Shown here in pieces: positions 22,931-54,340 of a DNA stretch of 64,000 nt. The position numbers were made by a program, and so were the translations under genes. Within the stretch, counting starts at the first letter, position 1. Each line of letters starts with the position of its first letter. Origin of the DNA: a virus (lineage: Duplodnaviria; Caudoviricetes); IMG/VR virus record IMGVR_UViG_3300024520_000069, positions 930-64,929 of that record. One strand, given 5' to 3'. Under the pieces are notes generated by a model. It ran no database searches, had not been told where the DNA came from, and worked only from the letters and a program-made list of their open reading frames with translations.

Positions 22931-22932
22931 GT

Positions 22933-24750: not shown

Positions 24751-24753
24751 AGC

Positions 24754-26403: not shown

Positions 26404-26622
26404 TTAATTACCTAAACCCTGTGAGGGCCTAGCATAGTTAGATTGGGGTTTGGTATTGTCTGCGTAGACGTTAGTCCTATCATTATACAACTGACCTGTA
26501 TTAAATGCCAATCCTTGGGCTTGCTTCTTAGCACCAAGGGAATTGTCCAATACTTTACCAGTGTTCACATTGTGGATGAACGATGAGTTGTTGATGTATG
26601 CTATGTATTCTTCACGGGTCAT
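26404..26622 (-). CDS. Hypothetical protein
   Basis: ORF, packing. Confidence 0.55.
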   Translation of the reverse strand: MTREEYIAYINNSSFIHNVNTGKVLDNSLGAKKQAQGLAFNTGQLYNDRTNVYADNTKPQSNYARPSQGLGN

Positions 26623-27230
26623 TAAGCTGTTACCTTAAACCATGCACAAACCTGTGCCGGTGCTGTTGTTGTCGTTGCACTGAGGGTTCTGAAGTTGACA
26701 AGATCACCAGCAGAGATGCTTAAAGGTGTGGCAGTGTAGTCTGCTGTGCCTGTACTGGCAGTAGCACAAGCCACGGTGTATGTAGCATTGGGTGTCTGGT
26801 TATGGACTAGCTGCACTTCAGCAACAGCAGATGCATTGTTGATGGCCAATGTCATGTAGTGTAGTTCACATGCAAATGGGATGACAATACCAGCCCCTGC
26901 TGGAGTGTTAGCACCATTACCATAAGCCCACTCATATGTGGTAGCGACTAGAGTAGAGTTCTCTTCAGCCCAGATGGGGAACCAGCTAACACTACTCCCA
27001 CCACTAGGTGTAGACCACTCCATAATATAGTCAGCATCAGTGGACTTGGTGAGGACTTGACTTGTATCACCACCACTAGGGGGCAGTCTGGGGTTGTCCC
27101 GTATACGAGCATCAGTGAGGTCAAGCTCATTGGAGAGCATGGCAGAGTACTGCTGGAGAGTCCTGTATTGTTCTTCAGGTGTCATCCCACCAAAGTCTGT
27201 ATGGGTTGGTAGCTCTGGGTATCTACTCAT
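26622..27230 (-). CDS. Tail-associated protein
   Basis: LPPSGGDTSQVLTKST fibre-type motif, beta-rich C-term. Confidence 0.6.
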   Translation of the reverse strand: MSRYPELPTHTDFGGMTPEEQYRTLQQYSAMLSNELDLTDARIRDNPRLPPSGGDTSQVLTKSTDADYIMEWSTPSGGSSVSWFPIWAEENSTLVATTYEWAYGNGANTPAGAGIVIPFACELHYMTLAINNASAVAEVQLVHNQTPNATYTVACATASTGTADYTATPLSISAGDLVNFRTLSATTTTAPAQVCAWFKVTA

Positions 27231-27233
27231 CCA

Positions 27234-29051
27234 TCAACGTAGTCCATCAATCTGTGCAGACAGGCGAGGATCACCCCATGCCCATGACGTATCAGTGGAG
27301 TCTGCATCAATACGAACCTTGGCTTGTCTACCCCTGATCCTGAAGTCAGTCTTCTGTGTGGCAGAGTTTATGAGGTAAGGCCCCTTCGTAGTCTCTGGCC
27401 CATTAGGGTACATCTTTGTAGTAATCGTGAAGGAGATGTTTCCATCGTTGATAGTGAAATCTGGAATGAGTTTATCAACGAACATAATGTTCTTACCTTC
27501 TTCGAAATCAAAGTCAGCAGATTCAAGATAAGATACGTTACTACTTCCATCAAAGTCAACCACAGAAGTAGGTTCATTATCGAAAATATAACTATCAGAA
27601 CCGGTAGTAATAGTATTGCCGAATACATGACGATCTTTATAAGTTGTCCATTTAGAGGTTCCGTAAACCCAGTGACCTTCTTCGATATTGAAGATGACAT
27701 AGGAATCACACTCTGTAGAATCGTTTGAAGGATAGAGCCATACAATCTCTTTAAACTCTGAGTTAATTCCTGCATACACTTTATCTTTCTGGGACTTGTT
27801 AGCATCATCAAATATGTACTGCCTCACAGGACAGTCCAAGGTCTTCACAGAGCCATCGAACATGTAGAAGTTACTACCACCCATCCATACTGTGGCACCA
27901 TCATAGTCCACAGCAGCATGGGGACCAGCCAACCCACAACCACTCCCCAACTGTCGGAAGTTATAGATGAATGGTGCGCCAACATACTGCATGGCATGGG
28001 CTGCATTGTCAGTGAAGATGTTGATCTGGTTACGGGAACGTACAGCACCAACGATCTTAGTACCATCAGTGATCTCTACTTCACCAGAGGTGGTGGAGAC
28101 AGAAGGTGTCCAATCGTTATAGGTTTCCTGTGAAGCCCAGCGTACCCTCAATGGGGAGTACTCAGCAGCGTAGCCTGTACAGCCAAAGGAGATGAGGTGT
28201 CTATCGTTGGGTGACACAACAATGAAGTCATTGATTGTGGGGGCAGCAGTGACAACGACAGCCCTCTCAGGGGTGATGGATGCATCCCTATCCCAGTAGA
28301 AGATATTCCCGCCCCTACGAGCAGCCAACATATCTTCACCCCAGTTATCAAGTGACCATTGGGAGATGGCGAATGTGATGTTTGAAGATGAGGCAGCAGT
28401 ATTCCATGCCCTCACACCTGTGGTAGATACACCAGCATTAAACACACCAGCACCAAAGCCAAGCCCTGCTGTTGGATTAGTAGTGCCTGTCTCAAGGAGA
28501 TAGTTGATCGTAGCCTCACCAGCAGAGACATCAGTTGCAGATGCAGTACCACTGGCAGAGACTTGAAAGTTATTGATGTCAGTAACTGAGGTAACCTCAT
28601 ACACGCCGGACAGGGTGATAGCACCTCCACCAATAGCAGTGGCTGAGGTGAACTCCACAAAGTCACCAGCATCCCGGCCATGTGTGGCTATGCTTACGTT
28701 AACCCTTGCCGAGCCATCAGTTGTGGAGAATGAAGATACCAAGGCTTGGGTAGATACGATGGGGGTGATGTCATAGAGGGTATCATTCTCAGACACATAC
28801 CACTTCTTCTCTGTAGCAACACTGAATAGTTTCTGCCCATCATTGTCCTGCCACTGTAGACTATCCCTGCCAATACCTTCGAACTGGGTAGTATTATTCT
28901 TGACATAGCCCCTTATGTTCTGGGGACGACCTTTCCTGAACCTGACATGATCGCCATCAAACCAGTTACCTTCTTCAGCATACTGGGTTGACTCCCGATT
29001 AAATCCGGGCTTGAACTTAAGTCTGAGTAGTTTGGAATCAGTGGAAGCCAT
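27234..29051 (-). CDS. Tail nozzle/stabilisation protein (P22 gp10/T7 gp12-like)
   Basis: 605 aa, WSLDNWGE, RVRWASQE, beta-propeller-like; synteny. Confidence 0.75.
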   Translation of the reverse strand: MASTDSKLLRLKFKPGFNRESTQYAEEGNWFDGDHVRFRKGRPQNIRGYVKNNTTQFEGIGRDSLQWQDNDGQKLFSVATEKKWYVSENDTLYDITPIVSTQALVSSFSTTDGSARVNVSIATHGRDAGDFVEFTSATAIGGGAITLSGVYEVTSVTDINNFQVSASGTASATDVSAGEATINYLLETGTTNPTAGLGFGAGVFNAGVSTTGVRAWNTAASSSNITFAISQWSLDNWGEDMLAARRGGNIFYWDRDASITPERAVVVTAAPTINDFIVVSPNDRHLISFGCTGYAAEYSPLRVRWASQETYNDWTPSVSTTSGEVEITDGTKIVGAVRSRNQINIFTDNAAHAMQYVGAPFIYNFRQLGSGCGLAGPHAAVDYDGATVWMGGSNFYMFDGSVKTLDCPVRQYIFDDANKSQKDKVYAGINSEFKEIVWLYPSNDSTECDSYVIFNIEEGHWVYGTSKWTTYKDRHVFGNTITTGSDSYIFDNEPTSVVDFDGSSNVSYLESADFDFEEGKNIMFVDKLIPDFTINDGNISFTITTKMYPNGPETTKGPYLINSATQKTDFRIRGRQAKVRIDADSTDTSWAWGDPRLSAQIDGLR

Positions 29052-29989
29052 TAAGTCCTCTTAAAGTCTTTAACGATCACCGTGTCAATCAGGGAAGTAT
29101 CACGAACTGAATAGACAAGGAGATCAACAGAGTTGATGGAGGTTGTCAAGGTTGGGGCAGTCCCTGATGGGAACTTCCAAGAGTCGTTGAGGGACAGGGT
29201 TCTTGTACCAGTACCATCCTGATGTACATAGATTTTACCAACCATACCATTGACAGGATTGTCAGGGTAGGGGATGGTCCTATTACCACCAAGGGTCACA
29301 GCAAAATGGGAGCCAAGGCTAAGGTCAAGGGCAATGGTTGTAGCATCTGTGAGGCAGACAACAGTATCAATCTGGGGAGCACCTGTGTATGTGACGGCTG
29401 ATGTGAACCCAACAGCGCCAGACACTGTGACATCCCCTGTGAACCCTGCTGTACCTGTGTAGGTCTTACCCCCAGTAACAGTCTGTGTGGCTGACGCAGT
29501 GACATAGCGTACATCAGCAATAGACACAGGGGTAAGCTCATTAACTGATGTGCCAATGTTCAGGGCAGCGGCAGTACCCATGCCAGAGTTAAGTTCAACA
29601 ACAGAGACACTATCACAGACATACATATTAATACTGGACTGTGATGTATTTGCACCACTACCAGCAGCAGTCTTAATGTTGATTGATGTGCCAGCACTGA
29701 CTGTGGCAGCGTTATGGATGACGTACCCCTTAGTTGCAGCAGGGATGATGATGTCAAGGGAATCAGTCACTGTACCTGTGAGGTAGAGGAAGGCATGGCG
29801 GGACTGATCAGAGGCACCATTACTATTAGTCAAGGTGACATCAACACTAGACACAGTGACTGTGACATAGCCAGCAATGGCTTCATCATATAAGTCAACA
29901 TTGGTGTTAAGGAGATCACCCCATGAGTTAGGGTTCTCTCCATCGCCTTGTTTAATTGCCCTTATATTAGTCGAGTATGTTGATGCCAT
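29051..29989 (-). CDS. Tail fibre protein
   Basis: MASTYS..GENPNSWG N-term; C-term domain paralogous to 33248-33766. Confidence 0.7.
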   Translation of the reverse strand: MASTYSTNIRAIKQGDGENPNSWGDLLNTNVDLYDEAIAGYVTVTVSSVDVTLTNSNGASDQSRHAFLYLTGTVTDSLDIIIPAATKGYVIHNAATVSAGTSINIKTAAGSGANTSQSSINMYVCDSVSVVELNSGMGTAAALNIGTSVNELTPVSIADVRYVTASATQTVTGGKTYTGTAGFTGDVTVSGAVGFTSAVTYTGAPQIDTVVCLTDATTIALDLSLGSHFAVTLGGNRTIPYPDNPVNGMVGKIYVHQDGTGTRTLSLNDSWKFPSGTAPTLTTSINSVDLLVYSVRDTSLIDTVIVKDFKRT

Positions 29990-30004
29990 ATCTAAATGAT
30001 TCCT

Positions 30005-30616
30005 TTAAAGTGTGATACCGAAAGTGTATGCGTCAGGCCAGTTGTTGATTGGGGCTATGAAGTTGTTTGCTGTGGTAGCTGCATCCAACTCTACCAAGTC
30101 TCCTATACTGACACAAGCATTGATTTGTCCTTCAATGAAGTTAGAGATTGTACGAACCTCTTTACGATAGTTTGCCAAGGAAGTCTTAACAGGCTTACCA
30201 GTATCCTCAATCCCACGAATGACTTGCCAGTCATGGACCTGTAACATTCCAGCAGCTACAGCTTTGATCTTGGTGATGTACTGGCTCTTAAGCCCTTCAT
30301 TGATACGTGGGTCTCCCCTATCATCAGTGACTGTCACACCTTCAACTACTTCAACAACATCTTCCAACACCTTTGGGGTTGATGTGTAGGAGTTAGTGAC
30401 AGTACCATTAGCAAAAACTAAACCATTACTCCCAACCCTATGATATTTACTGGAGGGCTTGGATGCTTTGACCACTGTGTACCAGCCAATGTTGTTAAGC
30501 TCTGCCTCACTCCAGTACCTGAATATTGTTGAAGGGTGATTAACATTACCCACTGTGACAGGTTTAGCCCTGCTAAGGGTCTTAACGATCACACCATCCA
30601 ATACATTAGCCCACAT
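30005..30616 (-). CDS. Tail fibre assembly chaperone-like protein
   Basis: DWQVIR..YRKEVR..WP C-terminal pattern. Confidence 0.65.
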   Translation of the reverse strand: MWANVLDGVIVKTLSRAKPVTVGNVNHPSTIFRYWSEAELNNIGWYTVVKASKPSSKYHRVGSNGLVFANGTVTNSYTSTPKVLEDVVEVVEGVTVTDDRGDPRINEGLKSQYITKIKAVAAGMLQVHDWQVIRGIEDTGKPVKTSLANYRKEVRTISNFIEGQINACVSIGDLVELDAATTANNFIAPINNWPDAYTFGITL

Positions 30617-30619
30617 AAC

Positions 30620-30925
30620 TTAACCTACCCCCATTGAAATTTTCCATATATAGCCCATCAGTCCAAGGACTGTCAAGCCTAACGAGCTTATCAACCATGT
30701 CCCAATCCTATACTTAAAGCCTGTCTCTTCCTTCATATGAGCTACTAATGCATCATAGAACTTATCCATCTTAGCGTTGAGTCGTTCACTGTTGGCAGTA
30801 CGCCTCACATCAGTTGCTTGCATAAGTTCCTCCAAAGCTTCTACCTTGTTCTCAAGACCTTCAACTCTGGCAGCTACTTTACCTATGTCTTTATTTATAT
30901 CAATAATAGCAAGCTCCATATCCAT
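30620..30925 (-). CDS. Coiled-coil protein with C-terminal TM
   Basis: Heptad pattern plus hydrophobic tail. Confidence 0.6.
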   Translation of the reverse strand: MDMELAIIDINKDIGKVAARVEGLENKVEALEELMQATDVRRTANSERLNAKMDKFYDALVAHMKEETGFKYRIGTWLISSLGLTVLGLMGYIWKISMGVG

Positions 30926-30926
30926 A

Positions 30927-31223
30927 TCAGTGTTGCCTTCTATGCTCGTTAGTTACATGGTTGTCAAGGTCAGTTTCAAGATCATCAGTACGATCCCTCC
31001 ACTGGCTACCTAAAGCATCGTTGTGTTCTTTCTGCTCTTCAATGAAAGACAACACAATAGCCCTGAATACCTTAGTTTCTGATACTGACTCTACATTTAC
31101 CAGCTTTTTCACTAGTGTCATATCATTCTGAAGTAAGGCGTAGCCAGTAGCTCCACCACTGAACATGAGCAGTAATGGGATCAGCTTCCATAACGTATCC
31201 GTGGATATCTTCAGGTCAGCCAT
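30927..31223 (-). CDS. Membrane protein with N-terminal TM
   Basis: LWKLIPLLLMFSGGATGY. Confidence 0.6.
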   Translation of the reverse strand: MADLKISTDTLWKLIPLLLMFSGGATGYALLQNDMTLVKKLVNVESVSETKVFRAIVLSFIEEQKEHNDALGSQWRDRTDDLETDLDNHVTNEHRRQH

Positions 31224-33244
31224 TATCTTGCCCTGCCTGATGGGGTGCCAAAGATCACATCGACATATGTAATCCCGCTCCCGTTCATCCGGCTATTGGA
31301 GTTCTGGGACTTCACGCCCTTGCTGGTGAAGTCGATGTTGTTACCAGAAGTCTGCTTTGAGTTGAGATCAAAGGCGTAGAAATCACTCATCACATTGTAG
31401 TTGCTGTTGGTGACAGCATCTATATTGAACCACTCGACAGTGGCGCTGATGTGCTTTGACCAGAACCATTCAGGCGCTACACCAGCGTTGATGAAAGCGT
31501 ATGTGGACCCGCCCCCGACATGGGACATGATCTTGATAAAGTCACCATCAGCCAGCACCAGATAATCATAGGTGTCTGTGGCATGTCCTGTGCCAATGTC
31601 GAAACTATTGATACCCACGTTGGTGATGTTGGAGGATAGCTGTTCAGCACCACCACCAGTGACCTGTAGCAAGTCACCAGCAGTCAGGTCAGGATGATAA
31701 AACCAAACCTCACCGCTGCTTCTGGGGAACAGGAGAATAGCGCAACGAGCTTCACCGAGACTATGGGTTACAGTTGTGTCCCCAGTGCCGTTTGTATGGG
31801 CCTGTGATCCTGCCGCTGTACCGCTGGCACTCCCAATATTGATCGACCATGCTGTCCATGTATCGGTGCCAGTCAAGGTGCTTACTGACTGGTAAGTAGC
31901 CGTGCTGGAAGTGCTGTACTCATTGCCGCTATCGTGACTGAACCGCCAAATCCAATTCTCGCTGGTAGTGTAGTTCTTGTAGATGTCCACACGGTTGGTG
32001 AAAGAATGGGCAGCAGACAATGTGCTGGCAATGTTGGTCTCTGTATCAGTGACGGCGACAAAATGATCAGACAGGGCTGTAGTTACAGCGTTATGCACAT
32101 CCACGTTGGCTTGGTTGAGGTAGGTGTAGCCGCTGATGGGGTAACTCAGGTCAACCTCTTCCACGATGGTACAGTTAGCTGCCGCGCCGGTATGGACAAA
32201 AGCGAATGGCACCCAGTGCTTATCAGCGTCAAGACTGCCGGAGAATGTATGTTTGACTGTACCGCCGTTCTGGTAAACCTTCACCGTATTAGCGTCGAAA
32301 TCCAGACAATATGCAATCTCGTCACTGGTAGTCACTGTGAATGAATAACTGTCATAAGAACCGTTCTGGATTGTATCTTTATTACTGGTACAGAAGTTCA
32401 ACTGACTGGTATTTTCAACAACACTACCTAATGACCCCCAGTCGGTAGCTACTTGTCCCGGCACCATTACACCGGCAGATGCCAGAGCAGATGTTGAAGT
32501 GGATTTAAATGTAATTTGCCACTGGCCAGTACGGGGAAACGGGATTGTTGCCTCTGCCCCACCACCAACTGATGTGCTTGTGGCTACAGTGTTGCCAGAA
32601 GACAGGGCAAAGCTACTGCTGTCCATCTGCAAAGGATTAAACAGGCACATCTCAGCAGTCGGAGTGTTGGTGACCAGCGTAACAGATGTGTCAGTCCAGT
32701 CACCGGCAGAGCCACTGTTCGTACCAGCGTCACCTTCAAACTTGAAATAGTGCTCACCCGCCGTGGCGGCTATGGCAACCCAAACACCTGTCACACTGTC
32801 TTCCTCACCGAAATTGGTGACTGCATCAGTGCCTGATTTCAGATGGACTTCCGCTGCATAGCCCTCGAAGTCGTCGAAGAGTTTCTGGTTCGACAAGCTG
32901 GTCGTTGTGCAGGAGCCACGGGACACGCCATTGACATAGATGCCGTTGTTGCTGATGTGAACGTGCATCCAGCCAGTAGTGTCTCTGTGCAATGCCGATG
33001 TGCTGGTGCCTTCGGCCTCAAGAGTATCGTTGCTGTTGAAGTGGATTTCCCCGGCAGTTGCGCCGAGCATGAGGTTCTCCGAACCCGTGTCAGTCAGGTA
33101 TATCCATGCCGAGAACGTCCACGGGGCAGTAATACTGTAGGTGGCAGAAAGCTCCGATCCACTGGTGAACAAGCCAGCATAATCAATACTAAAACCACCA
33201 CTACTCTGCCCACCAGCACCCATCAATAAGTTATTGTTAAACAT
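31223..33244 (-). CDS. Receptor-binding/tail protein with lectin-like (LamG/SPRY-type) domains
   Basis: WTFSAW, RDTTGWMHVH, YVNG, CLFNPL, LSSGN motifs; codon style differs from neighbours. Confidence 0.7.
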   Translation of the reverse strand: MFNNNLLMGAGGQSSGGFSIDYAGLFTSGSELSATYSITAPWTFSAWIYLTDTGSENLMLGATAGEIHFNSNDTLEAEGTSTSALHRDTTGWMHVHISNNGIYVNGVSRGSCTTTSLSNQKLFDDFEGYAAEVHLKSGTDAVTNFGEEDSVTGVWVAIAATAGEHYFKFEGDAGTNSGSAGDWTDTSVTLVTNTPTAEMCLFNPLQMDSSSFALSSGNTVATSTSVGGGAEATIPFPRTGQWQITFKSTSTSALASAGVMVPGQVATDWGSLGSVVENTSQLNFCTSNKDTIQNGSYDSYSFTVTTSDEIAYCLDFDANTVKVYQNGGTVKHTFSGSLDADKHWVPFAFVHTGAAANCTIVEEVDLSYPISGYTYLNQANVDVHNAVTTALSDHFVAVTDTETNIASTLSAAHSFTNRVDIYKNYTTSENWIWRFSHDSGNEYSTSSTATYQSVSTLTGTDTWTAWSINIGSASGTAAGSQAHTNGTGDTTVTHSLGEARCAILLFPRSSGEVWFYHPDLTAGDLLQVTGGGAEQLSSNITNVGINSFDIGTGHATDTYDYLVLADGDFIKIMSHVGGGSTYAFINAGVAPEWFWSKHISATVEWFNIDAVTNSNYNVMSDFYAFDLNSKQTSGNNIDFTSKGVKSQNSNSRMNGSGITYVDVIFGTPSGRAR

Positions 33245-33247
33245 AGA

Positions 33248-33766: not shown

Positions 33767-33787
33767 GTAATATAATCTCCATAGTTA

Positions 33788-34012
33788 TCATGATAAGGCT
33801 AATGTCCCAGTTCGTACAGTACCGTCACTACCTTTGAGTCTGAATGTTAAAAGGGTATTCGATGTTGCTTCAATGACAAGGTCACCATTATTGGCAGGGG
33901 TTTGTGAGGATGATGTAACTAATACAATACCACCTGTACCCTTGCCAGACAACTCAAGATCAGTGTTGACCCCTGTTGCTGCTCCCAATGCATCTGCTTT
34001 GATAGTACTCAT
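33788..34012 (-). CDS. Small tail-associated protein
   Basis: ORF; ATGA overlap. Confidence 0.6.
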   Translation of the reverse strand: MSTIKADALGAATGVNTDLELSGKGTGGIVLVTSSSQTPANNGDLVIEATSNTLLTFRLKGSDGTVRTGTLALS

Positions 34013-37000
34013 ATGATCACCAATGTTCCGTCAATTGTTAGGGTAACCCCTGATGCGATTGTGAGGGGCCCAGTACATGAGCCATTCTCCCCAGACACAA
34101 TAGATGTGCTGGTATTAAGCTCTGCCTCATTGATCCTGAAGATGTCTCCAGCACTGTTGCCTGTCGTACCATTCTCACCTTTGAAGTACCCACCGCCTGT
34201 GTTGTTGGCAATGGATGTTGCCATAGTAGCTGACAGGGCTGTGATGGCGGTGTTACTATTAGAGATCGACGTGGCCATTGTAGCTGACAAGGCTGTGATG
34301 GCGCTATTACTGTTACCAATACTAGTAGCCATTGTGGCACTTAATGCTGTGATGTCTGAAGCATTCACAGCTATAGCGCTAGTATTTGCTGCGATAGATG
34401 GTGTAGCAGTAAACATCGCCCAATCTGCTACTCCTAATGCAAGGCCCATAGCAACACTAGTGAGTACGGACACAGCAGCAATATGGATGTTACTATTGTC
34501 AATACTTGTGGCCATAGTAGCACTGAGGGCTGTAATGGCTGAAGCATTATTGGAGATGCTTGTGGCCATAGTAGCTGATAAGGCTGTAATAGCTGAGTTG
34601 CTATTAGAGATCGACGTGGCCATTGTAGAGGATACGTTGGCAATGGATGTTGCCATCGTAGCACTAAGGGCTGTTATGGCGCTGTTACTATTGGAGATAC
34701 TAGTTGCCATGGTAGCTGACAAGGCTGTCACATCAGAGCTAAGGGTTGCTACATCAACACCATCAACAGTACCACCAAGGGTGAGGTTACCGTCAATACT
34801 CAGGTTACCTTGGTTGCCTAGCTGCATCACGAAGTCTTCACCAGACCCCGGAGTAGCCTGATAGATCACACTGAAGAGTTCTGTTGGGGACTGTACTGCC
34901 CTCGTATCAATACGGAACATAGCCCCCGGAGAACCTGTGTCGTGTCCACCAGCCTGTGCATAGTTAGTTCCAAACTGGAGTAACTCGCCATTGACCTCAG
35001 TGATCAGACTAGCCTTTAAGGTATCTGTCATTGATATCATAGAACCGGTGAGGTTGATTTCCCCTGTGCCTGTAATGTTACTACTGTTCAAGTCAAGGTC
35101 ACCACCAAGCTGCGGGGTAGTGTCTTCAACAATATCATCAATACCACTAGCTGCTGCGTTTGCTATAGATGTGGCCAATGTGGCACTCAAGGCTGTGAGG
35201 GCTGTATTGGTATTGTTAATACTCGTAGCCATCGTAGCACTCAATGCTGTGATAGCTGAGTTGCTATTAGAGATCGACGTAGCCATCGTAGCACTGAGGG
35301 TAGTGATGGCGCTGTTGATAGACGTAGTAGCGTTGTTGATGCTTGTTATAGCATTAGCATTAGTGGTGATGTTACTGTTACTATTAGAGATAGATGTTGC
35401 CATAGTGGCCGACACAGCATCAATAGCTGCCTGTACATCAGTCTGGTCTGCAAGAGTACCCGTTATAGCCCCCCACGCAACACCAGTAATGATGCCTGTC
35501 AGGTTAGAACCATCACCATAGTATTCGGCAGCACTCACGTTGCCGCTAAACACAGCAGAAGCACCTGACACAGCACCAACGACATTCATGGCCTGTATAG
35601 ATGCATGTGTAGGTACTTGTAATGTGTTGGTTGTGAAGTCAGCTACTGATGTTGGGGCAGTTCCTCCAACACCTGTGAGGTTTGAACCATCACCATAGTA
35701 TTCAGCAGCACTTACATTACCAGAGAATACAGCAGAGGTTCCTGATACAGCACCAACAATGTTAATGGCCTGTACAGAAGCATGGGCTGTCACCTGTAGG
35801 GTATTGACAGTGAAGTCAGCTACTGATGTAGGGTTACTCCCAATACCTGTGAGGTTAGAACCATCACCATAGTACTCTACCGCACTCACATTACCACTAA
35901 GGGTGATGGCTGTACCACTCACATGCCCTGATAAAGTACCACCAGACAGGGGTAAGTGGTTTGAGATACTGGATGCCATAGTAGCTGATAAGGTAGTGAT
36001 AACGCCATTAACAGATACAATAGCATCCTTATTGGCTGTGATGCTCACGTTACTCTTGGCGATAGATGTGGCCATTGTGGCGCTAACAGCTTCAACGTCT
36101 GTCATCACTGCCAAGCCTGTACCGCCAAGCTCACCAGAGACAAGGGCAATGTTAGTTGCGCTAATGGTGCCAGAGAATACAGCAGCAGTACCACTGACCA
36201 CACCAGCAATGTTGAGGGCTTCCACAGAGGCTTTAGTAACGACCTGTAGGGTATTGGTTGTGAAGTCAGCTACAGAGGTTGGTGCGACTGCTGTGATACC
36301 TGTGAGGTTGCTACCATCACCATGGAACTCTACTGCGCTTACGTTACCACTGAACGTACCTGCTGTGGCACTGACGATACCGCCAACTACATTGTTGGCG
36401 TTGGTGGCGTTAGTCGCACTTATGGCAAAGGATGCGTTGGTGGATGAGGTTGCGAACACAGCAGAGACTGCATTGGTAGCAGCACTGGCAGATGTGGCAA
36501 AGGTGGCGTTGACTGCATTGGTGGCGTTAGTTGCACTGATGGCAAAGGATGCATTAGTAGCTGATGTGGCGAATGCAATGTTGGTGAGGTTGCTGCCATC
36601 ACCATGTACTTCACTGGCAGACACAGTCCCTGAGAATGTGGCAGTAGTACCGCTAACCACACCATTGAGGGTGAGGCCAGCAATGGATGTCTGTCCAGAT
36701 ACTGTGAGGGCTGTGAGGGTGATGGATGTCTCATCAGATGCAGAGACTACTTGACCAGCACTGTTAACTTCAAAGTTAGCTATTGGCCCGTAAGATGCAG
36801 AAGTAACTCCAGAAGCATTAAGGGAGATAGTAGGATTGCCACTAGTCCCATCACCATTACCGACAGATACACCTGATCCAGCAGTGATAGTTCGTCCGTA
36901 GATTGTTCCAGAATTAGAAGCAACAATACCAGTGGTACCAGTAAGATCAGCAATAGCATTAATAGCAGAAGCATCTACAGTCAAAGCCTCCCCATTGAGT

Positions 37001-37170
37001 TGGAATGTACCGTTAATATTAACAGCAGCGTTACTGATCTGGAGGGCAGAGTCTGTACCCTCACCATCAGAGACAGGCCGCATAGTGGTATCAACTCCAC
37101 TATTGCTATTACTAACTTGGAGTAGGTCTTTATATGTGGCTGATGGTGTCTTACCAGTCAGTGCGGCCAT
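34009..37170 (-). CDS. Long Ser/Thr/Ala-rich tail fibre protein with internal repeats
   Basis: 18-aa ALSATMATSISNSNSAIT repeats, GNVSAxEYYGDGSNLTG repeats, DTTPQLGGDLD motif. Confidence 0.8.
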   Translation of the reverse strand: MAALTGKTPSATYKDLLQVSNSNSGVDTTMRPVSDGEGTDSALQISNAAVNINGTFQLNGEALTVDASAINAIADLTGTTGIVASNSGTIYGRTITAGSGVSVGNGDGTSGNPTISLNASGVTSASYGPIANFEVNSAGQVVSASDETSITLTALTVSGQTSIAGLTLNGVVSGTTATFSGTVSASEVHGDGSNLTNIAFATSATNASFAISATNATNAVNATFATSASAATNAVSAVFATSSTNASFAISATNATNANNVVGGIVSATAGTFSGNVSAVEFHGDGSNLTGITAVAPTSVADFTTNTLQVVTKASVEALNIAGVVSGTAAVFSGTISATNIALVSGELGGTGLAVMTDVEAVSATMATSIAKSNVSITANKDAIVSVNGVITTLSATMASSISNHLPLSGGTLSGHVSGTAITLSGNVSAVEYYGDGSNLTGIGSNPTSVADFTVNTLQVTAHASVQAINIVGAVSGTSAVFSGNVSAAEYYGDGSNLTGVGGTAPTSVADFTTNTLQVPTHASIQAMNVVGAVSGASAVFSGNVSAAEYYGDGSNLTGIITGVAWGAITGTLADQTDVQAAIDAVSATMATSISNSNSNITTNANAITSINNATTSINSAITTLSATMATSISNSNSAITALSATMATSINNTNTALTALSATLATSIANAAASGIDDIVEDTTPQLGGDLDLNSSNITGTGEINLTGSMISMTDTLKASLITEVNGELLQFGTNYAQAGGHDTGSPGAMFRIDTRAVQSPTELFSVIYQATPGSGEDFVMQLGNQGNLSIDGNLTLGGTVDGVDVATLSSDVTALSATMATSISNSNSAITALSATMATSIANVSSTMATSISNSNSAITALSATMATSISNNASAITALSATMATSIDNSNIHIAAVSVLTSVAMGLALGVADWAMFTATPSIAANTSAIAVNASDITALSATMATSIGNSNSAITALSATMATSISNSNTAITALSATMATSIANNTGGGYFKGENGTTGNSAGDIFRINEAELNTSTSIVSGENGSCTGPLTIASGVTLTIDGTLVII

Positions 37171-37445: not shown

Positions 37446-37447
37446 GT

Positions 37448-37663
37448 TTAACTTCCTTCGCCGGGGTCAATCCTTGGGTTCCTGATTGCAGGGTTCTCTC
37501 CAACCTTTGGTATCCTATTCTGTGGGTGGTTCTTTAAGTCAAAACTACCATCGTGGTCAGCAGGGCATACGAGGAGTCCAAAGCTATTAGGCTTCAGTTG
37601 TGAATGCCTGTAGCGCCAGCCACAGACATCACATATCCCCCATGCCCTCTTATTACTAGCCAT
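37448..37663 (-). CDS. Small Zn-binding structural-region protein (copy 1)
   Basis: AWGICDVCGWRY..LVCP.D.D..HPQN. Confidence 0.8.
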   Translation of the reverse strand: MASNKRAWGICDVCGWRYRHSQLKPNSFGLLVCPADHDGSFDLKNHPQNRIPKVGENPAIRNPRIDPGEGS

Positions 37664-38355
37664 TAGATAAGATTCAGCTTAGGTGTGAAATGCATTGAGA
37701 CACGTTCCCGATCTTCTTCCATAGCTCTGGTGAGCCTACCATCATACTCAGACTCGATGAGGGCCAGCTTGTTAGGATCAAGCCCATCCTTCTTAAGTCC
37801 CATCTGGTAAGCTACACCAGCAGTCAAGGCTGGGTAGAATCGACGGGATATGTCAGGCGTTTGCGATGCGGATTTATCCACATCTTGGATGTACTTGACT
37901 TGCTCAAACTTGATAACGTCTGTGCTGTTGTCTGGTATAGGCCACAGATATACGGTGGGTGTGTTACCTGCATTGGCGCTGCGTACAGCATATTGTGTGG
38001 TTCTACCCGTCTGTGACTTGTTTGGAAGTTGAAGATACTCTTGCATTGAGATACGGTCAAGGGAGATGTCTGATGGCACATTGTTCGTTGTCCTACTATG
38101 CACAGCGTTTAAGACATCAAGGGTTGCTGATGTCAGGGCAAGGGTAGTTACGGATGTGGTGAGGGTTACGGCAGTGGTATCAACAGACCAGAGGGTGATG
38201 CCCCTATTCTGCCAATCATTGAAGAGGAGGTTGATGGAGCGTCTGGCAGACTTAGGGTCATGGCCAGAAGTTTGCTCACCCCCAATCATCTCAAGGGCTT
38301 CCTGAATTACTTCATCAATGTCCATAGAGAAGTCATATGTTCCGCTAGTACTCAT
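37663..38355 (-). CDS. Head-tail adaptor/tail tubular protein
   Basis: ARRSINLLFNDWQNRG, YLWPIPD, EEDRE; synteny. Confidence 0.75.
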   Translation of the reverse strand: MSTSGTYDFSMDIDEVIQEALEMIGGEQTSGHDPKSARRSINLLFNDWQNRGITLWSVDTTAVTLTTSVTTLALTSATLDVLNAVHSRTTNNVPSDISLDRISMQEYLQLPNKSQTGRTTQYAVRSANAGNTPTVYLWPIPDNSTDVIKFEQVKYIQDVDKSASQTPDISRRFYPALTAGVAYQMGLKKDGLDPNKLALIESEYDGRLTRAMEEDRERVSMHFTPKLNLI

Positions 38356-38370
38356 CAGTGATACCTTCCT

Positions 38371-38607
38371 TTAGGTTGCCGCTTGCCATTTAATCTTCTC
38401 AACATCTACTAGTTCTTCAGGACCATTAGCCATGTTATAGATACGGTCCATCCTACGATGGGCTTCTTCAAGTTGTTTCTTCAGTTCATCATAGTGGGGC
38501 CAGAGGTGGAGTGTTGCCCTATTAGCATCTGGATAGTCTAAGGCATGCATGGAATACTTTGATTCAGTGTATAGGTAGTCAACCATTTCTTTGTGTGTGT
38601 GGAACAT
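38371..38607 (-). CDS. Hypothetical protein
   Basis: GGAG RBS. Confidence 0.6.
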   Translation of the reverse strand: MFHTHKEMVDYLYTESKYSMHALDYPDANRATLHLWPHYDELKKQLEEAHRRMDRIYNMANGPEELVDVEKIKWQAAT

Positions 38608-38631
38608 CTTATTATTTAATCTCCAATAAGC

Positions 38632-39726
38632 TTAGTCTCGTTCGACTTCATACTTACCAATCAGTCGAACATTGTATTTAAGTAGGGATGTCATGTCATC
38701 ACGTATCAGGATTGACATGTAGTTCTGTGAAGCTGGGCCATCAATAACTAATGGTTCAGAGTAATCGAAGTCCATAGTAATCGCAGTGTTTGTCCCATCA
38801 CTGATAGCGTTAGAAATATTAAAACCTACATCAAAGAACTCGCCAAGCTGTTTGAATGTTAAGGAGAAGCGCACTATACTATCCTCAACCCACTGTAGTC
38901 CCATCCCATTTGTGAGGGTCAGTCCTAATATCTGGTCATATGATAGGGCTGGCATTGTTCCGGCAGACAAGGTAGATGCAGCAGGACCAGCAATAGTAAC
39001 CCGTACCCTGTATGTAGTAAACTTCTGGCCTTGGGGAGGTACAGCTAAGAACTCAATAATCTCACCGGTCTCTTCAAGCTGGAAATCATCAATATAGAAC
39101 TTAGGAGACTTACCAGTACCTTTTGTATTATGAACCATCCTGAACGCATCAATGGTAGCTGCTTCAAGACTCATAGCGGTTAAAGGTATAGTTATATTAT
39201 GCCAGACATCAAACTCATTAGAGTTTGCGTAGTCCTCAAGATTTACTGATGTACCAACCGCAAGACCAGTCCCAGTATCCCAACCCTGAATTGATACCCC
39301 ATCACCAGCATCCCAATCTTTATCAATATTAATCCATAAAGTGATAGCCACATAGCTACTCAAGTCAATAGATGACGCCCTTAAGAACTGCCATGTATCA
39401 CCAACAGCAGGGTTATCAACCTTAATGGAGAGGGTGCTGGGTGGTCTAGGGCGCTCTCCATTATCAAATTTAGGTTTGACCCCAATTATGTTAGACCCTG
39501 TCCACGCTGAGGTATCAGTACCATCATGGATAAGCTCAGGCAATCCTCCAAATAAACCATTCTGGTTCATCTCAAAACCATAGTCAGGGTTTAGGAATAA
39601 GATTTGGGCAGGGCGATAGCGCCTGTACGGCTCCATTGCTGTACGTGCCTCACCTTCATCGGTAATGCCAAGTTCTTTAACATTACCTTTACCGTCACCA
39701 CCTAATACCCTGACAGGAATAGTCAT
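38632..39726 (-). CDS. Protein with carbohydrate-binding-like beta-sandwich
   Basis: DLSSY..ITLWI..WHNITIPL..FYIDDFQL pattern. Confidence 0.6.
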   Translation of the reverse strand: MTIPVRVLGGDGKGNVKELGITDEGEARTAMEPYRRYRPAQILFLNPDYGFEMNQNGLFGGLPELIHDGTDTSAWTGSNIIGVKPKFDNGERPRPPSTLSIKVDNPAVGDTWQFLRASSIDLSSYVAITLWINIDKDWDAGDGVSIQGWDTGTGLAVGTSVNLEDYANSNEFDVWHNITIPLTAMSLEAATIDAFRMVHNTKGTGKSPKFYIDDFQLEETGEIIEFLAVPPQGQKFTTYRVRVTIAGPAASTLSAGTMPALSYDQILGLTLTNGMGLQWVEDSIVRFSLTFKQLGEFFDVGFNISNAISDGTNTAITMDFDYSEPLVIDGPASQNYMSILIRDDMTSLLKYNVRLIGKYEVERD

Positions 39727-39729
39727 CCC

Positions 39730-40347
39730 TTATTCTTTCACCGTATCGCCTACATAGCCGTTAACAGAGATCGCAATCTTCTCACCATCTGTGGCAGTAC
39801 CTCCACCTTCACGCTTGTAAGCTATATACCATGTACCACCGGGGCCAATTACGTTTGTACCATTCATATTACGTTGTGTGGACAGGCGTGATGTGACCGG
39901 CCACTCATGAAACTCAGTACCTGATGTGTATGTTAAGTCTGCCGAGCCATCACTGATCTTAACTTCAGCACCTCCAGTAATAAACTGATTAGGTTTACTG
40001 GTATGTTTCTGTACTACAGCAGTGGTAGTAGCATCTGTACCTCCTGTAAGACCAACAGGGATAATGCCTTGTACTAACAGTAAATCTACTGGGGTGATTG
40101 TTTGAGGATCAATATACAGACGAGTGATATGAAAGTTCTTGTCGGCTGTATTATTAGTGATTGCAATTAGCACACCTGATGCCGCAGCAGCAGTGTGACA
40201 GACAGCATGTCCGATATAGGCATCCCCTACATGTGCTGATTCCTCTTCTGCATGGAAGCTAACAGATTCCACACGGGCCAGTCCTGTGGAACGGAATAGC
40301 CATGATTTAATTCCACCTTTTGAAGTACGCCCTGTAATCTCAGTCAT
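39730..40347 (-). CDS. Hypothetical virion protein
   Basis: Beta-rich ORF in structural arm. Confidence 0.6.
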   Translation of the reverse strand: MTEITGRTSKGGIKSWLFRSTGLARVESVSFHAEEESAHVGDAYIGHAVCHTAAAASGVLIAITNNTADKNFHITRLYIDPQTITPVDLLLVQGIIPVGLTGGTDATTTAVVQKHTSKPNQFITGGAEVKISDGSADLTYTSGTEFHEWPVTSRLSTQRNMNGTNVIGPGGTWYIAYKREGGGTATDGEKIAISVNGYVGDTVKE

Positions 40348-40542
40348 CTAAAACTCCTCACCAATGCCGCTGGAAAGACCATCTCCATAGGCAGCTTCCA
40401 GCAGTTTAAGCATGCCCTTCTGTGTCTCTACTAAATCTTTAAGTAATGCTACAATAACATCTCCATTCGTTGAGGCTACTAAGGTACTATCCCTACCTAA
40501 CTCATCAACTCCCGAAGAGCCTAGTTTATTTAAGTTACTCAT
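40348..40542 (-). CDS. Hypothetical protein
   Basis: ORF, packing. Confidence 0.55.
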   Translation of the reverse strand: MSNLNKLGSSGVDELGRDSTLVASTNGDVIVALLKDLVETQKGMLKLLEAAYGDGLSSGIGEEF

Positions 40543-40806
40543 CTAACCAAACACCCAACATCTATAGTTTACACTGTTACCAATAAACTTCAAAACCTTA
40601 GTTCTAAATCTATCAACAGTCATAGTCTCAGAAGCCTTGAGTGTCATAGTGGCAACATTGTTTCTTTTAAGATGGACTGTTAAGTCTGATGTGCCGTCAT
40701 TAGTTATAACTAAACGTCTGGAATACCAAGGCAAGTCAATAAAGACTGAAGAAGGTATAGCAACTCCTTCAATGCTGTGGATGTTAGAATATATTAAAGC
40801 GTCCAT
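40543..40806 (-). CDS. Hypothetical protein
   Basis: ORF, packing. Confidence 0.6.
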   Translation of the reverse strand: MDALIYSNIHSIEGVAIPSSVFIDLPWYSRRLVITNDGTSDLTVHLKRNNVATMTLKASETMTVDRFRTKVLKFIGNSVNYRCWVFG

Positions 40807-40929
40807 ACCCTACCCCACCATACCTTAAGTTTCTTCCATGTAGATAAAGGCGGACGATGGAGTTGGAAAGCCCCATCGCCAATCACCGGATCACTTAGTT
40901 TACGTATGATCATTATTCGTCAAGACTCT

Positions 40930-41550
40930 TTAGCTACGACGAGCCTTGCCCCAGCCTTTGATTTGCCCACCATTGGCACGTTTGACAGGCTTCTTCTTAG
41001 GCTTGCCTACATTGGCTTTGGCCTTACTGAAATCAGGGGACTCAGTATAATCCTCCTTCATATCTTTGGAGAGCTTACCACCACTGGCACGTTTGACTTT
41101 CTTCAACTCTTCACGCATAGCCTTGGCAGAAGCATTACCAGCAGCCTTAGCCTGTGCATCTGTCGGACCACGTTTCTGAATAGCTTCACGGGTCTTACGC
41201 TGTTTTGCAACCAAGGCAAGACGCTCCTTGTTACGGTCAGCATATGAACGCTTCTTAGTGGTAGGCTTCTTCATACCAGCTTCAGTGGCCTTCTTATGTC
41301 GAGCCAAGTCCTTGCCATAAGCTGCCTTAGCTTTAGAACCTCCACCAAGATTAATAGACGCACCAGCCTTAATCTTATTCTTATCTTTAATGGAAGGGTT
41401 AGCCTTCATGAGGGCAGCTACAGTGGTGCCGTGCTGTTTAGCAATCTTTGAAAGACTATCACCTGACTTGATCTTATACTTAGCTTTAGATTTTTCTTTA
41501 GCTTTATTATTAGCCCTAAGTGCTGCCAGTTTTTCTGTGTAACTACTCAT
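40930..41550 (-). CDS. Basic LysM-domain protein
   Basis: [44 protein letters not shown]. Confidence 0.9.
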
Positions 41551-41552
41551 AA

Positions 41553-42206
41553 TTAATTAGCTCCCATCAAAGTGTTGTCGCCACCCGAAGGATTGGCTGG
41601 TTTCTGTAGGTCATCCCTACGGGTACGTCTTGCCTGATTGCGAAGGGCTTCGATGGCACCTTTGTACCGCTCTTCAAATACGTTCAAGACTGTGAAGTTC
41701 TTGGTAAACATCATAGCTTCTACCATACACGCATAGAACAGGGCATCATAGCAGAAGTCTGTGAAGTAGTTGGTGTCTGTTGCTGTGGTCAAGGATGTGG
41801 GCCTTGCAATGTAGGCAATCTCACCATCCACTGTACTGGCAGGGGTAGGGGCAACCCTCACCGTAGTACCGTTCAGTTTAGCGTAGTAGGTTGGGTTACC
41901 TGTACTAGCACTCACTGGCCAGTAATCATTGAGGAACTCATCAGTTCTGAGGAGGAGGTTAATCTTACTCCCACCAATCACAGCATTCAGGTTCTTCACA
42001 ATACGTGTCCCAGTAGGGAGGGTGACTTCATTATTCCCACCAGTGATGGCTATAGAGGTGTGGGTGACCAAGCCATAGTCATCAAGGTCACGGGTCATCC
42101 TCTCTTCAGCCCTATTGATCATCTTAGGGGTGTAGTCAAGGAACTCCGTAGAGTCATTCTCACACGCCTCAATGAGATCATTCTGTAGGTACAGGTAATC
42201 TGGCAT
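41553..42206 (-). CDS. Head-tail adaptor-like protein
   Basis: AEERM, GNPTYYA, VAPTP, ALFYAC; synteny. Confidence 0.7.
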
Positions 42207-42212
42207 GTCTGA

Positions 42213-42518
42213 TTAGCCGTAGAACACTGTAATGGTTGCGGCAGATGTTGGAGCGGTCACAGACACAAGCCCATCAACACGAATACCTACATCAGGGAGA
42301 TGGATATGGGTGAGGTCATTAGTAGTGGTGAGATTAAACTTGATGATATTACCTGCCGTACTATTAAATGGCGTAGTTGAAGTACCATCCAAGACATAAG
42401 TACCTACCCCTGTTGCATGAATGGCACGGATACGTGTGTCTTGTACAGTAGCTGAGGTTGTGATATCGACTAGGACACCACTACCAACCAGATGTGCGCT
42501 TCTTATATTCGTAGCCAT
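42213..42518 (-). CDS. Small virion (decoration-like) protein
   Basis: Ends ITVFYG; follows capsid gene. Confidence 0.65.
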   Translation of the reverse strand: MATNIRSAHLVGSGVLVDITTSATVQDTRIRAIHATGVGTYVLDGTSTTPFNSTAGNIIKFNLTTTNDLTHIHLPDVGIRVDGLVSVTAPTSAATITVFYG

Positions 42519-42563
42519 ATAACTATACCCCTATATACAATTTACGTGTTGAAACTAAATAGG

Positions 42564-42593
42564 ATTATAACGTGTGATGTGACATATATGCAA
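42564..42593 (-). promoter_or_regulatory. sigma70-like promoter
   Basis: TTGCAT-18nt-TATAAT on minus strand. Confidence 0.55.
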
Positions 42594-42626
42594 ATAAAAA
42601 GGGGAAGCCCGATTGGACCTCCCCTT
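42592..42626 (-). terminator. Intrinsic terminator after major capsid gene
   Basis: AAGGGGAGG..CTTCCCCTT followed by T-tract. Confidence 0.8.
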
Positions 42627-42656
42627 AGTTTATTTAGTTGTTAAGTACTGTTAGGA

Positions 42657-43568
42657 TCAGCTAGAGCCAGCAGCACCAAACATACCACGCCAGTCAGACC
42701 AGCCAAAGCCATAACGCTCACGACACTTGTAACGCAGGTTACCAGTATCGAAGTCAGGCTCCATCTTAGTCTGGAGGGCTACACGGGTGAACATCTTGGT
42801 ACCATTAGGAACGTCAGTCTTAATGAACCAAGCATTCGTATCAGTGAAACGACGGTTGACATGATAGCCACCCGGAATAACTCCCTGATTACGAACACTA
42901 TTGATGTCGTTGGTCGCAACCCCAGTAGCACCCGGAGTGTTGAGGACAACGTCAGCAGTGAAGACCAAGTCAGACGGGATATGCAGGGACTGTGCGCCAG
43001 CCCCAATAAGGATACCACGATCATCTTTGATCTTTGAGATAGCAATACATGCAGTCTCAATAGCAGACTCAGCCAGATCAGTCGCACCAATGTAGTTGGA
43101 CTGATTACCGTCACCAACAGTGGGATGTGCGGCAGAGAACAGTTCTACACCATCACCGCCCGTATAGGCACTGTTGAAGCCGTTGTTAAAGGTGTCAGCA
43201 CCCTTAACCTGCTTAGTGTTAGCCATTGCACGGGCCAGAGCTTTAGCACGAAGCTTAGCAAAGGAGTCGTACAGATTATCTTCCATAGCCTCTTCAGTGA
43301 TGGCGAATGCAAGGGCAATGGTCTCGTTAGTGTAACGAGAGACATAGCCTTCAGCAGCTTCATCATACTGAACAGCGGCACCCTCACCCTTAGTAGGGGC
43401 GGTACCGAATCCGGTGAACAGGACTTCCTCTTCGAATGCACGATCCGAAGACTCCATCTCGTAGAGTACTTTGTGTTCATCATCAACACTACCATACTCC
43501 ATACCGAAAACTTCATTGAGGCCCGGAAGGAGTTGTTTAGAAATACTTGCGCGATTAATAGCAGCCAT
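42657..43568 (-). CDS. Major capsid protein
   Basis: LLPGLNEVFGMEY, SDRAFEEE, DFDTGNLRYKCRERYGFGWSDWR; optimised codons; terminator downstream. Confidence 0.92.
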   Translation of the reverse strand: MAAINRASISKQLLPGLNEVFGMEYGSVDDEHKVLYEMESSDRAFEEEVLFTGFGTAPTKGEGAAVQYDEAAEGYVSRYTNETIALAFAITEEAMEDNLYDSFAKLRAKALARAMANTKQVKGADTFNNGFNSAYTGGDGVELFSAAHPTVGDGNQSNYIGATDLAESAIETACIAISKIKDDRGILIGAGAQSLHIPSDLVFTADVVLNTPGATGVATNDINSVRNQGVIPGGYHVNRRFTDTNAWFIKTDVPNGTKMFTRVALQTKMEPDFDTGNLRYKCRERYGFGWSDWRGMFGAAGSS

Positions 43569-43587
43569 TTTTTAATGCTCCTTCAGG

Positions 43588-44145
43588 TTAAGCAGAGACA
43601 AACGTGTCAACATGCTGGATCAAACGAACTTCAACTTTAGGATAAGCAGAAGTGATGGAATTACCGGGTTCGTCAACAAGACCAACAACGCGAGCGGCCA
43701 AGAGGCCAGTGCCGCGAGTACTTGCATCAATACCGAAACCGGAACGCTTGGTTACCGTCGAACCTGCGCCGAGGGTTACACCAAAGTTCAACATACCAAT
43801 GTCACCAGCGGTAACAGAAGCATCAGCCTGAATAGTGTAAAGCTGGTGCTGATCATCAATGACGTTAGCCACGATGTCGGATGCTGAAGTGCTGGCTGGC
43901 CAATAGGCAGAGAACTTAGGCTCGCCGTCCTGTGTATAAGAGCAACCAGTGAAGACGCCAAGGAGCTTATCCGTGTCCCCAGTCATTACGTTCACCTTAC
44001 CTGCAACAAGGGTCACTGCATCGCCAGAAAAGATATTGGCGTTGTAGGCACTTGCAATTTCGTATACGTTAGAGCCAGTGCTGTTAGCATTGCCCCCACG
44101 TTTGCGGGAAGGGCGAAAGCCGTCGAGTGCTTTAGTAGCAGACAT
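43588..44145 (-). CDS. Capsid decoration/minor capsid protein
   Basis: GFRP, IFSGD, GVFTGC; directly upstream of MCP. Confidence 0.7.
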   Translation of the reverse strand: MSATKALDGFRPSRKRGGNANSTGSNVYEIASAYNANIFSGDAVTLVAGKVNVMTGDTDKLLGVFTGCSYTQDGEPKFSAYWPASTSASDIVANVIDDQHQLYTIQADASVTAGDIGMLNFGVTLGAGSTVTKRSGFGIDASTRGTGLLAARVVGLVDEPGNSITSAYPKVEVRLIQHVDTFVSA

Positions 44146-49164: not shown

Positions 49165-49224
49165 ATGTCCTATATCCTATAAGGGTGGTTTATGTGATGT
49201 AAGGCATAGTATATCGTAACATCT

Positions 49225-54339: not shown

Positions 54340-54340
54340 T

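Follow-up and report, generated by a model that had tools for sequence, protein, structure and literature searches.

A candidate Maf-type glycosylation cassette and a serine-centred motif excess in the exterior proteins of a marine podophage clade

To our knowledge, mycobacteriophages are the only tailed phages for which virion glycosylation has been demonstrated, and the glycosyltransferases proposed to modify their virion proteins are encoded by the phages themselves; the 2023 work of Freeman et al. on mycobacteriophage virions reportedly concerns actinobacteriophages, other glycosyltransferase families and targets in the capsid and tail tube. In the chlorovirus PBCV-1, a eukaryotic giant virus with N-linked capsid glycans and no Maf-type domain, a virus-encoded cytoplasmic GT-A enzyme (A64R, 2p6w) glycosylates a virion protein, and A064R is said to offer a parallel for a multi-domain glycosyltransferase combined with a methyltransferase. 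The serine-rich-repeat adhesins of Gram-positive cocci are O-glycosylated on Ser in the cytoplasm, within repeats rich in Ser, Ala, Val and Thr, by GtfA/B and then by GT8 enzymes such as GlyE. Maf enzymes (Magnetospirillum magneticum 5mu5, Clostridium botulinum CbMaf) contain a DUF115 domain that is preceded by a Rossmann/methyltransferase-like domain. PMC11339370 describes them as cytoplasmic O-glycosyltransferases that accept both Ser and Thr and act without a strict sequon, none that is conserved being known; modification occurs in the neighbourhood of hydrophobic residues or of low-complexity regions, the residues right next to the glycosite in the CbMaf pLogo are small and apolar or polar-uncharged (V, M, I, F, T, G), and the helical C-terminal domain is likened to flagellin chaperones. 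Here we describe a gene cassette with a Maf-type enzyme in a 64,000-nucleotide stretch of viral DNA (the window; bases 930-64929 of the 64,929-base virus record IMGVR_UViG_3300024520_000069), together with an excess of the motif [VTA]S[AVI] in exterior virion proteins of the same genome. In our literature searches, no publication connected a phage Maf/DUF115 enzyme with virion proteins.

The motif was counted in 56 translated open reading frames (ORFs) of the window, with the expectation taken from 1000 within-protein shuffles. The 19 proteins encoded at 26622-44145 (5408 amino acids, aa) contain 93 matches against 39.7 expected (z ~9), whereas the four ejection proteins (19118-26390) contain 3 against 6.0 and the remaining 33 ORFs 27 against 22.8. 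These counts bear out an original prediction, made from the DNA letters alone, that the motif recurs in the outer proteins and is scarce in ejection and replication proteins; every string quoted in that prediction is present. A 1053-aa repeat-built fibre (34009-37170, minus strand) holds 48 of the 93 matches, where 17.2 are expected. They fall into 24 sequence contexts, with ATMATSI in 13 copies, GNVSAxE in five and PTSVADF in three, and the excess in this fibre is mostly pseudo-replication because the protein is built from internal repeats. Without it, 45 matches are observed against 22.3-23.6 expected (z 4.7-5.0 over whole-protein and 40-, 20- and 10-residue block shuffles), an enrichment beyond composition, as had been predicted. 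Local composition is ruled out as the cause, because the excess persists in the 10-40-residue block shuffles, and repeated DNA outside the 1053-aa fibre is ruled out by 43 distinct 9-mers among the 45 sites. The claim that exterior proteins are studded with the motif holds for the adaptors, nozzle and fibres; it does not extend, in the window, to the DUF7483 fibre (31223-33244; 5 against 4.5), the protein at 39730-40347 (0 against 1.0) or the major capsid protein (MCP; 1 against 1.06).

The window covers nearly all of the genome of an uncultured marine podophage from a large clade. Its minus strand carries a podophage-like structural module, with genes for TerL, portal, GroES, MCP, two SU10-type adaptors, a nozzle-like protein, several fibres, an endolysin and large ejection proteins, and its plus strand carries a replication module, with genes for a primase-helicase, a family A polymerase, a Cas4-like exonuclease and an intein-containing class II ribonucleotide reductase. 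Marine or freshwater phages are the nearest isolates, among them Pelagibacter phages HTVC027P and HTVC023P, 023Pt_psg01, DSL-LC04, Roseobacter phages CRP-901/902 and Planktothrix phage Pag-Yong1, with ~40% identity in TerL and 50-55% in MCP. A megablast search of the region against phage records gave no match. Closer relatives are numerous in IMG/VR (MCP identity 64-75% over the best segment): at least 600 stretches encode the capsid protein of the clade, 80 MCP-anchored loci (L001-L080) were kept, and five long relatives (G001-G005; 45-61 kb) were taken whole and counted over their syntenic structural intervals. Nine phages served as controls, T7, Syn5, P22 and six outgroups with a shared capsid gene (50-55% identity); for Pag-Yong1 only two proteins entered the orthologue count, its MCP having been missed by ORF picking.

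The excess recurs in all five long relatives. Their structural intervals contain 56 matches against 27.1 expected, 65 against 27.6, 41 against 22.8, 27 against 15.6 and 8 against 3.7, which corresponds to a ratio of 1.7-2.35, whereas the rest of each genome lies at 0.75-1.17. The unrelated controls are flat (T7 9 against 7.0, Syn5 36 against 27.1, P22 6 against 9.3), which rules out a generic property of phage exterior proteins. The outgroups, which have a like module architecture, are flat as well (HTVC027P 20 against 17.8, HTVC023P 35 against 32.3, 023Pt_psg01 21 against 25.2, DSL-LC04 8 against 7.0, Pag-Yong1 3 against 3.1, CRP-902 16 against 12.0). Over six orthologous families (a 185-aa protein, MCP, the two adaptors, a 312-aa fibre and the nozzle), the clade has 113 matches against 49.4 expected, and three outgroups have 25 against 23.7; a second outgroup set adds 27 against 22.1, for an outgroup total of 52 against 45.8. 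Relatives without the enzymes described below are thus not enriched, in agreement with the original prediction. In the MCP-anchored loci, whose z-scores overstate significance because the sequences are related to one another, the scaffold-like protein (40 against 40.5), portal (23 against 48.8) and TerL (2 against 19.0) are not enriched. Portal and TerL (46684-50781 in the window, minus strand, and their orthologues in these loci) are depleted in the motif, which, if real, could reflect avoidance of off-target modification; the sequences are close relatives, and the effect may be inherited. A phage GroES (Cpn10; 45784-46194, minus strand) lies inside the head module, is kept in relatives and outgroups, and has one conserved V/I-S-V/I site.

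The motif excess is centred on Ser and is directional. When the flanks are kept and the central residue is varied, Ser is enriched 1.98-fold in the window (z 4.6), against 1.17-fold for Thr, 0.94-fold for Gly and 1.08-fold for Asn; Arg reaches 1.71-fold (z 2.3). Thr has a higher β-strand propensity than Ser, and a purely structural cause should therefore not favour Ser. Tripeptides that match in the forward direction only (TSA, TSV, TSI, ASI and VSI) number 31 against 12.4 expected in the window and 65 against 36.4 in the relatives, whereas the mirror-only tripeptides number 17 against 12.1 and 44 against 36.7.

The most strongly enriched family is an SU10-type adaptor (41553-42206, minus strand; PF24175, 86 bits with a cut-off of 27), with 2 matches against 0.42 expected in the window and 285 against 68.8 in 66 clade sequences. 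Two of its sites are conserved, as VSA in 59 of 67 sequences (Thr in the outgroups) and as TS[VA] in 52 of 67 (D, N or S in the outgroups). The second SU10-type adaptor (37663-38355, minus strand; 41.1 bits, above the same cut-off) has 36 matches against 14.3 in 22 clade sequences, and its residue 68 is Ser in 96% of the clade and Gly in the outgroups. In the nozzle-like tail protein (27234-29051, minus strand; phrog_3287, E 1e-76; PDB nozzle chains 8zkm/8zkk, E 2.9e-5), 8 matches are found against 2.85, six of them within residues 119-175, and the outgroup orthologues have 7 against 8.6. The 312-aa fibre-like protein (29051-29989, minus strand) likewise has 8 against 2.86 in the window, with 28 against 12.1 in four clade sequences and 3 against 3.0 in the outgroups. 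Two small proteins flank the MCP gene: a 101-aa protein that adjoins it (42213-42518, minus strand; 3 against 0.77 in the window, 65 against 28.9 in 36 clade sequences) and the 185-aa protein encoded upstream (43588-44145, minus strand; 5 against 1.33 and 152 against 98.3 in 72 clade sequences), in which one site is Ser in 90% of the clade (TSA in 38 of 73) and T/A/A in the outgroups. PDB sequence searches with the 185-aa protein and the adaptor gave nothing informative, and the label 'decoration protein' is unverified. The MCP itself (42657-43568, minus strand; PF25209) is weakly enriched, with 146 against 91.9 in 75 clade sequences, mostly from one N-terminal ASI site (57 of 76; Gln in the outgroups). 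Judging from the alignments, the conserved motif serines are clade-specific gains at homologous positions, and they make up a minority of all sites. The 1053-aa fibre, with no Pfam or PHROG match and only short C-terminal matches by tblastn, carries an 18-residue unit (AITALSATMATSISNSNS, at least 13 copies) that contains ATMATSI, and a 59-residue unit with GNVSAxEYYGDGSNLTG and PTSVADF; the tandem DNA periods are 54 and 177.

The enzyme cassette lies on the plus strand and is formed by two genes, for a 265-aa and a 760-aa protein. This pair is kept in five of five long relatives, always adjoining the small terminase gene; tblastn did not find it in the outgroups, and a six-frame hidden Markov model search found the MptE-like domain in none of five outgroup genomes. 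The 265-aa protein (14656-15453) is a GT8-like (GT-A) glycosyltransferase (phrog_28018, E 8e-47) whose orthologues in the five relatives share 50-55% identity. It scores below the cut-off of Pfam Glyco_transf_8 (PF01501; 15.4 bits against 24.3, E 0.014), and it has invariant MDxDM (DxD) and HFTTGGP motifs, with D95-x-D97 in six of six sequences. The fold was assigned from the Atlas's own model (predicted local distance difference test, pLDDT, 0.83), which matches viral glycosyltransferase clusters with TM scores of 0.82-0.89, one of these clusters passing the bar for PF01501; an AlphaFold2 model built from six sequences was unusable (pLDDT 44.5). The sole PDB sequence match of the family is GlyE (5gvv), at a non-significant E of 0.026. 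A GtfA/B homologue, as in the adhesin system, was not found, and phage proteins take the place of adhesins as candidate targets.

The 760-aa enzyme was modelled from a 64-sequence alignment (mean pLDDT 90.9) and compared with a fold library of 48,161 chains. Its N-terminal GT-A domain (residues 1-245; 15454-16188) has an invariant W120-x-D122-A-D124 in 64 of 64 sequences and a retaining-type fold, with Z 12.2-13.6 to GT6 and GT8 enzymes; model residues 1-245/246 match BoGT6a (Z 13.6), glycogenin (Z 13.5), the PBCV-1 enzyme 2p6w (Z 12.8), GlyE 5gvv (Z 12.5) and Skp1 galactosyltransferase (Z 12.5). A class I O-methyltransferase domain follows (residues ~251-459; 16204-16830; Methyltransf_24, PF13578, 31.1 bits with a cut-off of 26.3), and residues 251-459 reach Z 14-15 to O-methyltransferases. 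The third domain (residues ~474-736; 16873-17661) is of the DUF115/MptE-like (Maf) type; the PF01973 match (60.3 bits, cut-off 34.6) spans residues 487-675, and the same domain is annotated on 120 listed homologues. Residues 242-751 retrieve Maf 5mu5_A as the top hit (Z 18.8, 347 residues aligned, chain 32-503), and Foldseek also ranks 5mu5 first (E 4.6e-9). The alignment stops at residue 503 of 632 of that chain, so the helical C-terminal domain of Maf appears to be missing; the phage protein ends nine residues past the aligned part. The resemblance to Maf/PseD does not run over the full length in sequence: NCBIfam NF050051 (PseD) gives 31.5 bits against a cut-off of 670 over profile positions 218-320 of 640, and 50 of the 64 family members match this model, with a best E of 2.8e-11 and all far under the cut-off. 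In the PDB, Maf was reached at significance by the fold search only, the best that sequence-profile searches gave being 5mu5 at E 1.1. The family comprises 927 proteins at E <= 0.001, none of the listed matches being informatively named and the contigs given for them being ~63 kb long at most. In the Atlas all domain combinations of the enzyme form separate virus-only clusters, including the N-terminal domain by itself and together with the methyltransferase.

The phage enzyme shares with Maf the DUF115 domain and the Rossmann/methyltransferase-like domain before it. Unlike Maf, it is phage-encoded, no flagellin is involved, the helical C-terminal domain appears to have no counterpart, the N-terminus bears an additional GT-A domain, the domain before DUF115 is a genuine O-methyltransferase (above the Pfam cut-off) instead of a degenerate one, and the associated motif excess concerns Ser only. 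Compared with the mycobacteriophages, the setting differs in its uncultured marine host lineage, its Maf-type enzyme and its candidate targets in the neck and tail.

The original prediction had placed the responsible enzymes at 13549-17736, a region that does encode glycosyltransferases, including a Maf-type core. The prediction is not supported for the radical SAM/SPASM enzyme at 13549-14490 (plus strand; Pfam Radical_SAM 53.5 bits, SPASM 38 bits), an accessory gene for which blastp at 1e-5 found no orthologue in any of the five relatives and which is therefore placed outside the conserved cassette. In the window phage this gene lies directly upstream of the glycosyltransferase pair, and its substrate could be a sugar or a peptide. 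The relatives have a further methyltransferase beside the cassette, where no sugar-nucleotide genes were seen. One relative, G005, has a second, shorter copy (L100:15748-17112; 455 aa) with the GT-A and methyltransferase domains, without DUF115, and with a weak GT2 match. Pelagibacter phage Mosig (L109, record positions 124832-131228) has a larger cluster of glycan type, in which homologues of the GT-A domain and of the 265-aa glycosyltransferase are accompanied by two methyltransferases, a sulfotransferase and another glycosyltransferase.

We propose, with a probability of roughly 45%, that the clade acquired a Maf-type cassette and uses it to O-glycosylate serines of its own neck, tail and fibre proteins. 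This is the best reading because the Maf-type cassette occurs in this clade only and because Maf glycosites are flanked by small apolar residues; the published glycosite context of CbMaf fits the present motif. The cassette would act on these serines in the cytoplasm during infection and draw on nucleotide sugars of the host. The Maf-type core would start the glycan by adding the first sugar to an exposed Ser with T, A or V before it and A, V or I after it; elongation would fall to the two GT-A enzymes and capping to the methyltransferase. The approximately two-fold, Ser-specific and directional excess in exterior proteins would then result from selection for acceptor sites. The enrichment, its confinement to this clade, and the folds and conservation of the enzymes are observed; we infer that the enzymes act on virion proteins and that the motif serines are acceptors, and likewise in which order the steps occur and which sugars are attached. 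DNA glycosylation is less likely, as no gene was found that would supply a glycosylatable base; searches of the window gave no hydroxymethylase, thymidylate-synthase-like or TET-type gene.

The probability stays below one half because an action of the enzymes on virion proteins is conjectural, motif and cassette co-occur through a single evolutionary event, the motif is weak, enrichment does not extend to Thr, and several observations fit neutral turnover among A, S and T. Several observations speak against O-glycosylation by the cassette. The motif is a diffuse one: |z| stays below 2.5 for each flanking residue in the window, the flanks are weak in the relatives (A and V at -1 1.35-1.4-fold, A at +1 1.2-fold), and the sharp position-specific residue requirement of a glycosylation sequon is absent. 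The short acceptor motif of the original prediction is thus replaced by a diffuse preference, and its acceptor-motif interpretation is partly supported. Thr-centred motifs are not enriched in the window or the relatives, though Maf enzymes modify Thr too. Most motif columns are lineage-specific (16 of 21 in the nozzle, 17 of 21 in the 312-aa fibre). TCN codons encode 38 of the 45 motif serines but 199 of the 317 other serines (p 0.0016), a bias that fits exchange with Ala and Thr by drift in an A/S/T pool and that is in itself neither for nor against selection. The S-rich DUF7483 fibre lies close to its expectation, while GroES, which is not a virion protein, has 29 matches against 11.5 in 53 sequences from its one conserved site. 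With the signal lying in the small head-proximal proteins, adaptors, nozzle and fibres and the capsid weakly enriched, the originally predicted glycan shield is not indicated over the capsid. Genes for nonulosonic-acid synthesis were found neither in the window nor next to the cassette of the relatives. The CRP-902 adaptor has 4 matches against 0.7 without the cassette, though at non-homologous positions. Mosig, with homologues of the 265-aa protein and of the N-terminal domain of the 760-aa enzyme and without the MptE-like domain, is not enriched (103 against 113.2). Finally, the association of cassette and motif comes from one clade and is therefore n = 1 in evolutionary terms. On the window alone, the motif also fails a full look-elsewhere correction.

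The main rival explanation, which we regard as possible though somewhat doubtful, is a lineage-specific sequence habit of surface β-strands and fast-evolving A/S/T/V-rich insertion domains that is unrelated to the enzymes; the cassette would then modify the host envelope, DNA or a non-structural protein. It would account for the turnover of most sites among S, T, A and V, the TCN bias, the diffuse flanks and the half of the raw count that comes from repeats, and it gains from the conserved GroES site, which is clearly there for structural reasons, from the two glycosyltransferase modules of Mosig without enrichment, and from the co-occurrence of motif and cassette being a single evolutionary event. 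Against it, the excess persists in 10-residue block shuffles and is Ser-specific and directional, whereas orthologues of the same six families in the outgroups are flat. The conserved sites are Ser gains, with Ser in at least 90% of the clade and little Thr. In addition, no hydroxymethylase for DNA glycosylation was found, and Maf-type enzymes are protein O-glycosyltransferases.

An improbable alternative is that the serines were selected for another serine-directed modification or function in which the Maf-type domain has no part, such as a modification that one of the GT-A enzymes or a host enzyme starts, or receptor or fibre-docking contacts. The Ser-only preference, which differs from the acceptance of Ser and Thr by Maf, would fit it, as would the resemblance of the N-terminal GT-A domain to protein-acting enzymes (glycogenin, Skp1 galactosyltransferase and the PBCV-1 capsid glycosyltransferase). 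Positive evidence for any such modification was not found, however, and Mosig has GT8-like and GT-A modules, no Maf-type domain and no enrichment. The GT8-like and GT-A pair alone is therefore unsupported as the motif reader, which, if it is an enzyme, would be the Maf-type domain.

Because the motif was chosen after the data were seen, its out-of-sample behaviour is decisive. All motifs of the form [3-set]X[3-set] were scanned (10,003,817 in the window, ~19 million in the relatives). In the window, 865 motifs exceed the z of 4.75 of the Ser motif, which ranks 866th, and some motif with z >= 4.75 arises in 40 of 40 shuffled window sets; in the pooled relatives without the big fibres, 295 motifs are higher (rank 296th), and the Ser motif has z 6.95, above 25 of 25 shuffle maxima. 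A statistical artefact of the post-hoc choice, which these ranks would allow, is very improbable, since the same pre-specified motif lies above all shuffle maxima in the pooled relatives, replicates in five of five relatives and 66 adaptor sequences, and is flat in nine control phages and Mosig, although this replication is limited by the relatives not being independent of the window.

Other features of the genome lie outside this argument. The class II (B12-dependent) ribonucleotide reductase (10759-13218, plus strand) is split by an intein carrying an HNH endonuclease, with Intein_splicing, HNH_3 and Hint matches at residues ~255-495; the reductases of the relatives have ~580-640 aa and no insertion. 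Genes for rIIA-like (737 aa, phrog_612, E 1.6e-109) and rIIB-like (279 aa, phrog_609, E 2.3e-73) proteins are found at 58412-61461 (plus strand) in this podophage-type genome. A pentapeptide-repeat protein in the early region (54245-55012, plus strand; Pfam Pentapeptide, E 1e-50) could be a DNA mimic or an anti-defence candidate, and a LysM-domain protein inside the structural module (40930-41550, minus strand; PF01476, E 4.7e-13) may be a virion-associated peptidoglycan binder. The G+C content is 54% in positions 1-2000 and 41-50% elsewhere, and the ORFs at 333-791 and 1198-1692 have no family match.

Taken to its full form, and held more tentatively still, our proposal is that in an abundant, uncultured marine podophage clade a Maf-type core without the flagellin-binding end, fused to a GT-A domain and an active O-methyltransferase, O-glycosylates serines of the neck, nozzle and fibre proteins in the context T/A/V-S-A/V/I. 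If so, the motif would be the first acceptor signature of phage virion glycosylation that can be read from sequence, and the enzyme the first of the Maf type to be re-targeted from flagellin to a virion. The enzyme would, moreover, offer a compact means of placing methylated glycans on proteins, with the motif as a list of candidate serines. For the phages themselves, a common type of ocean virus, such glycans could influence adsorption, grazing, aggregation and resistance to proteases.

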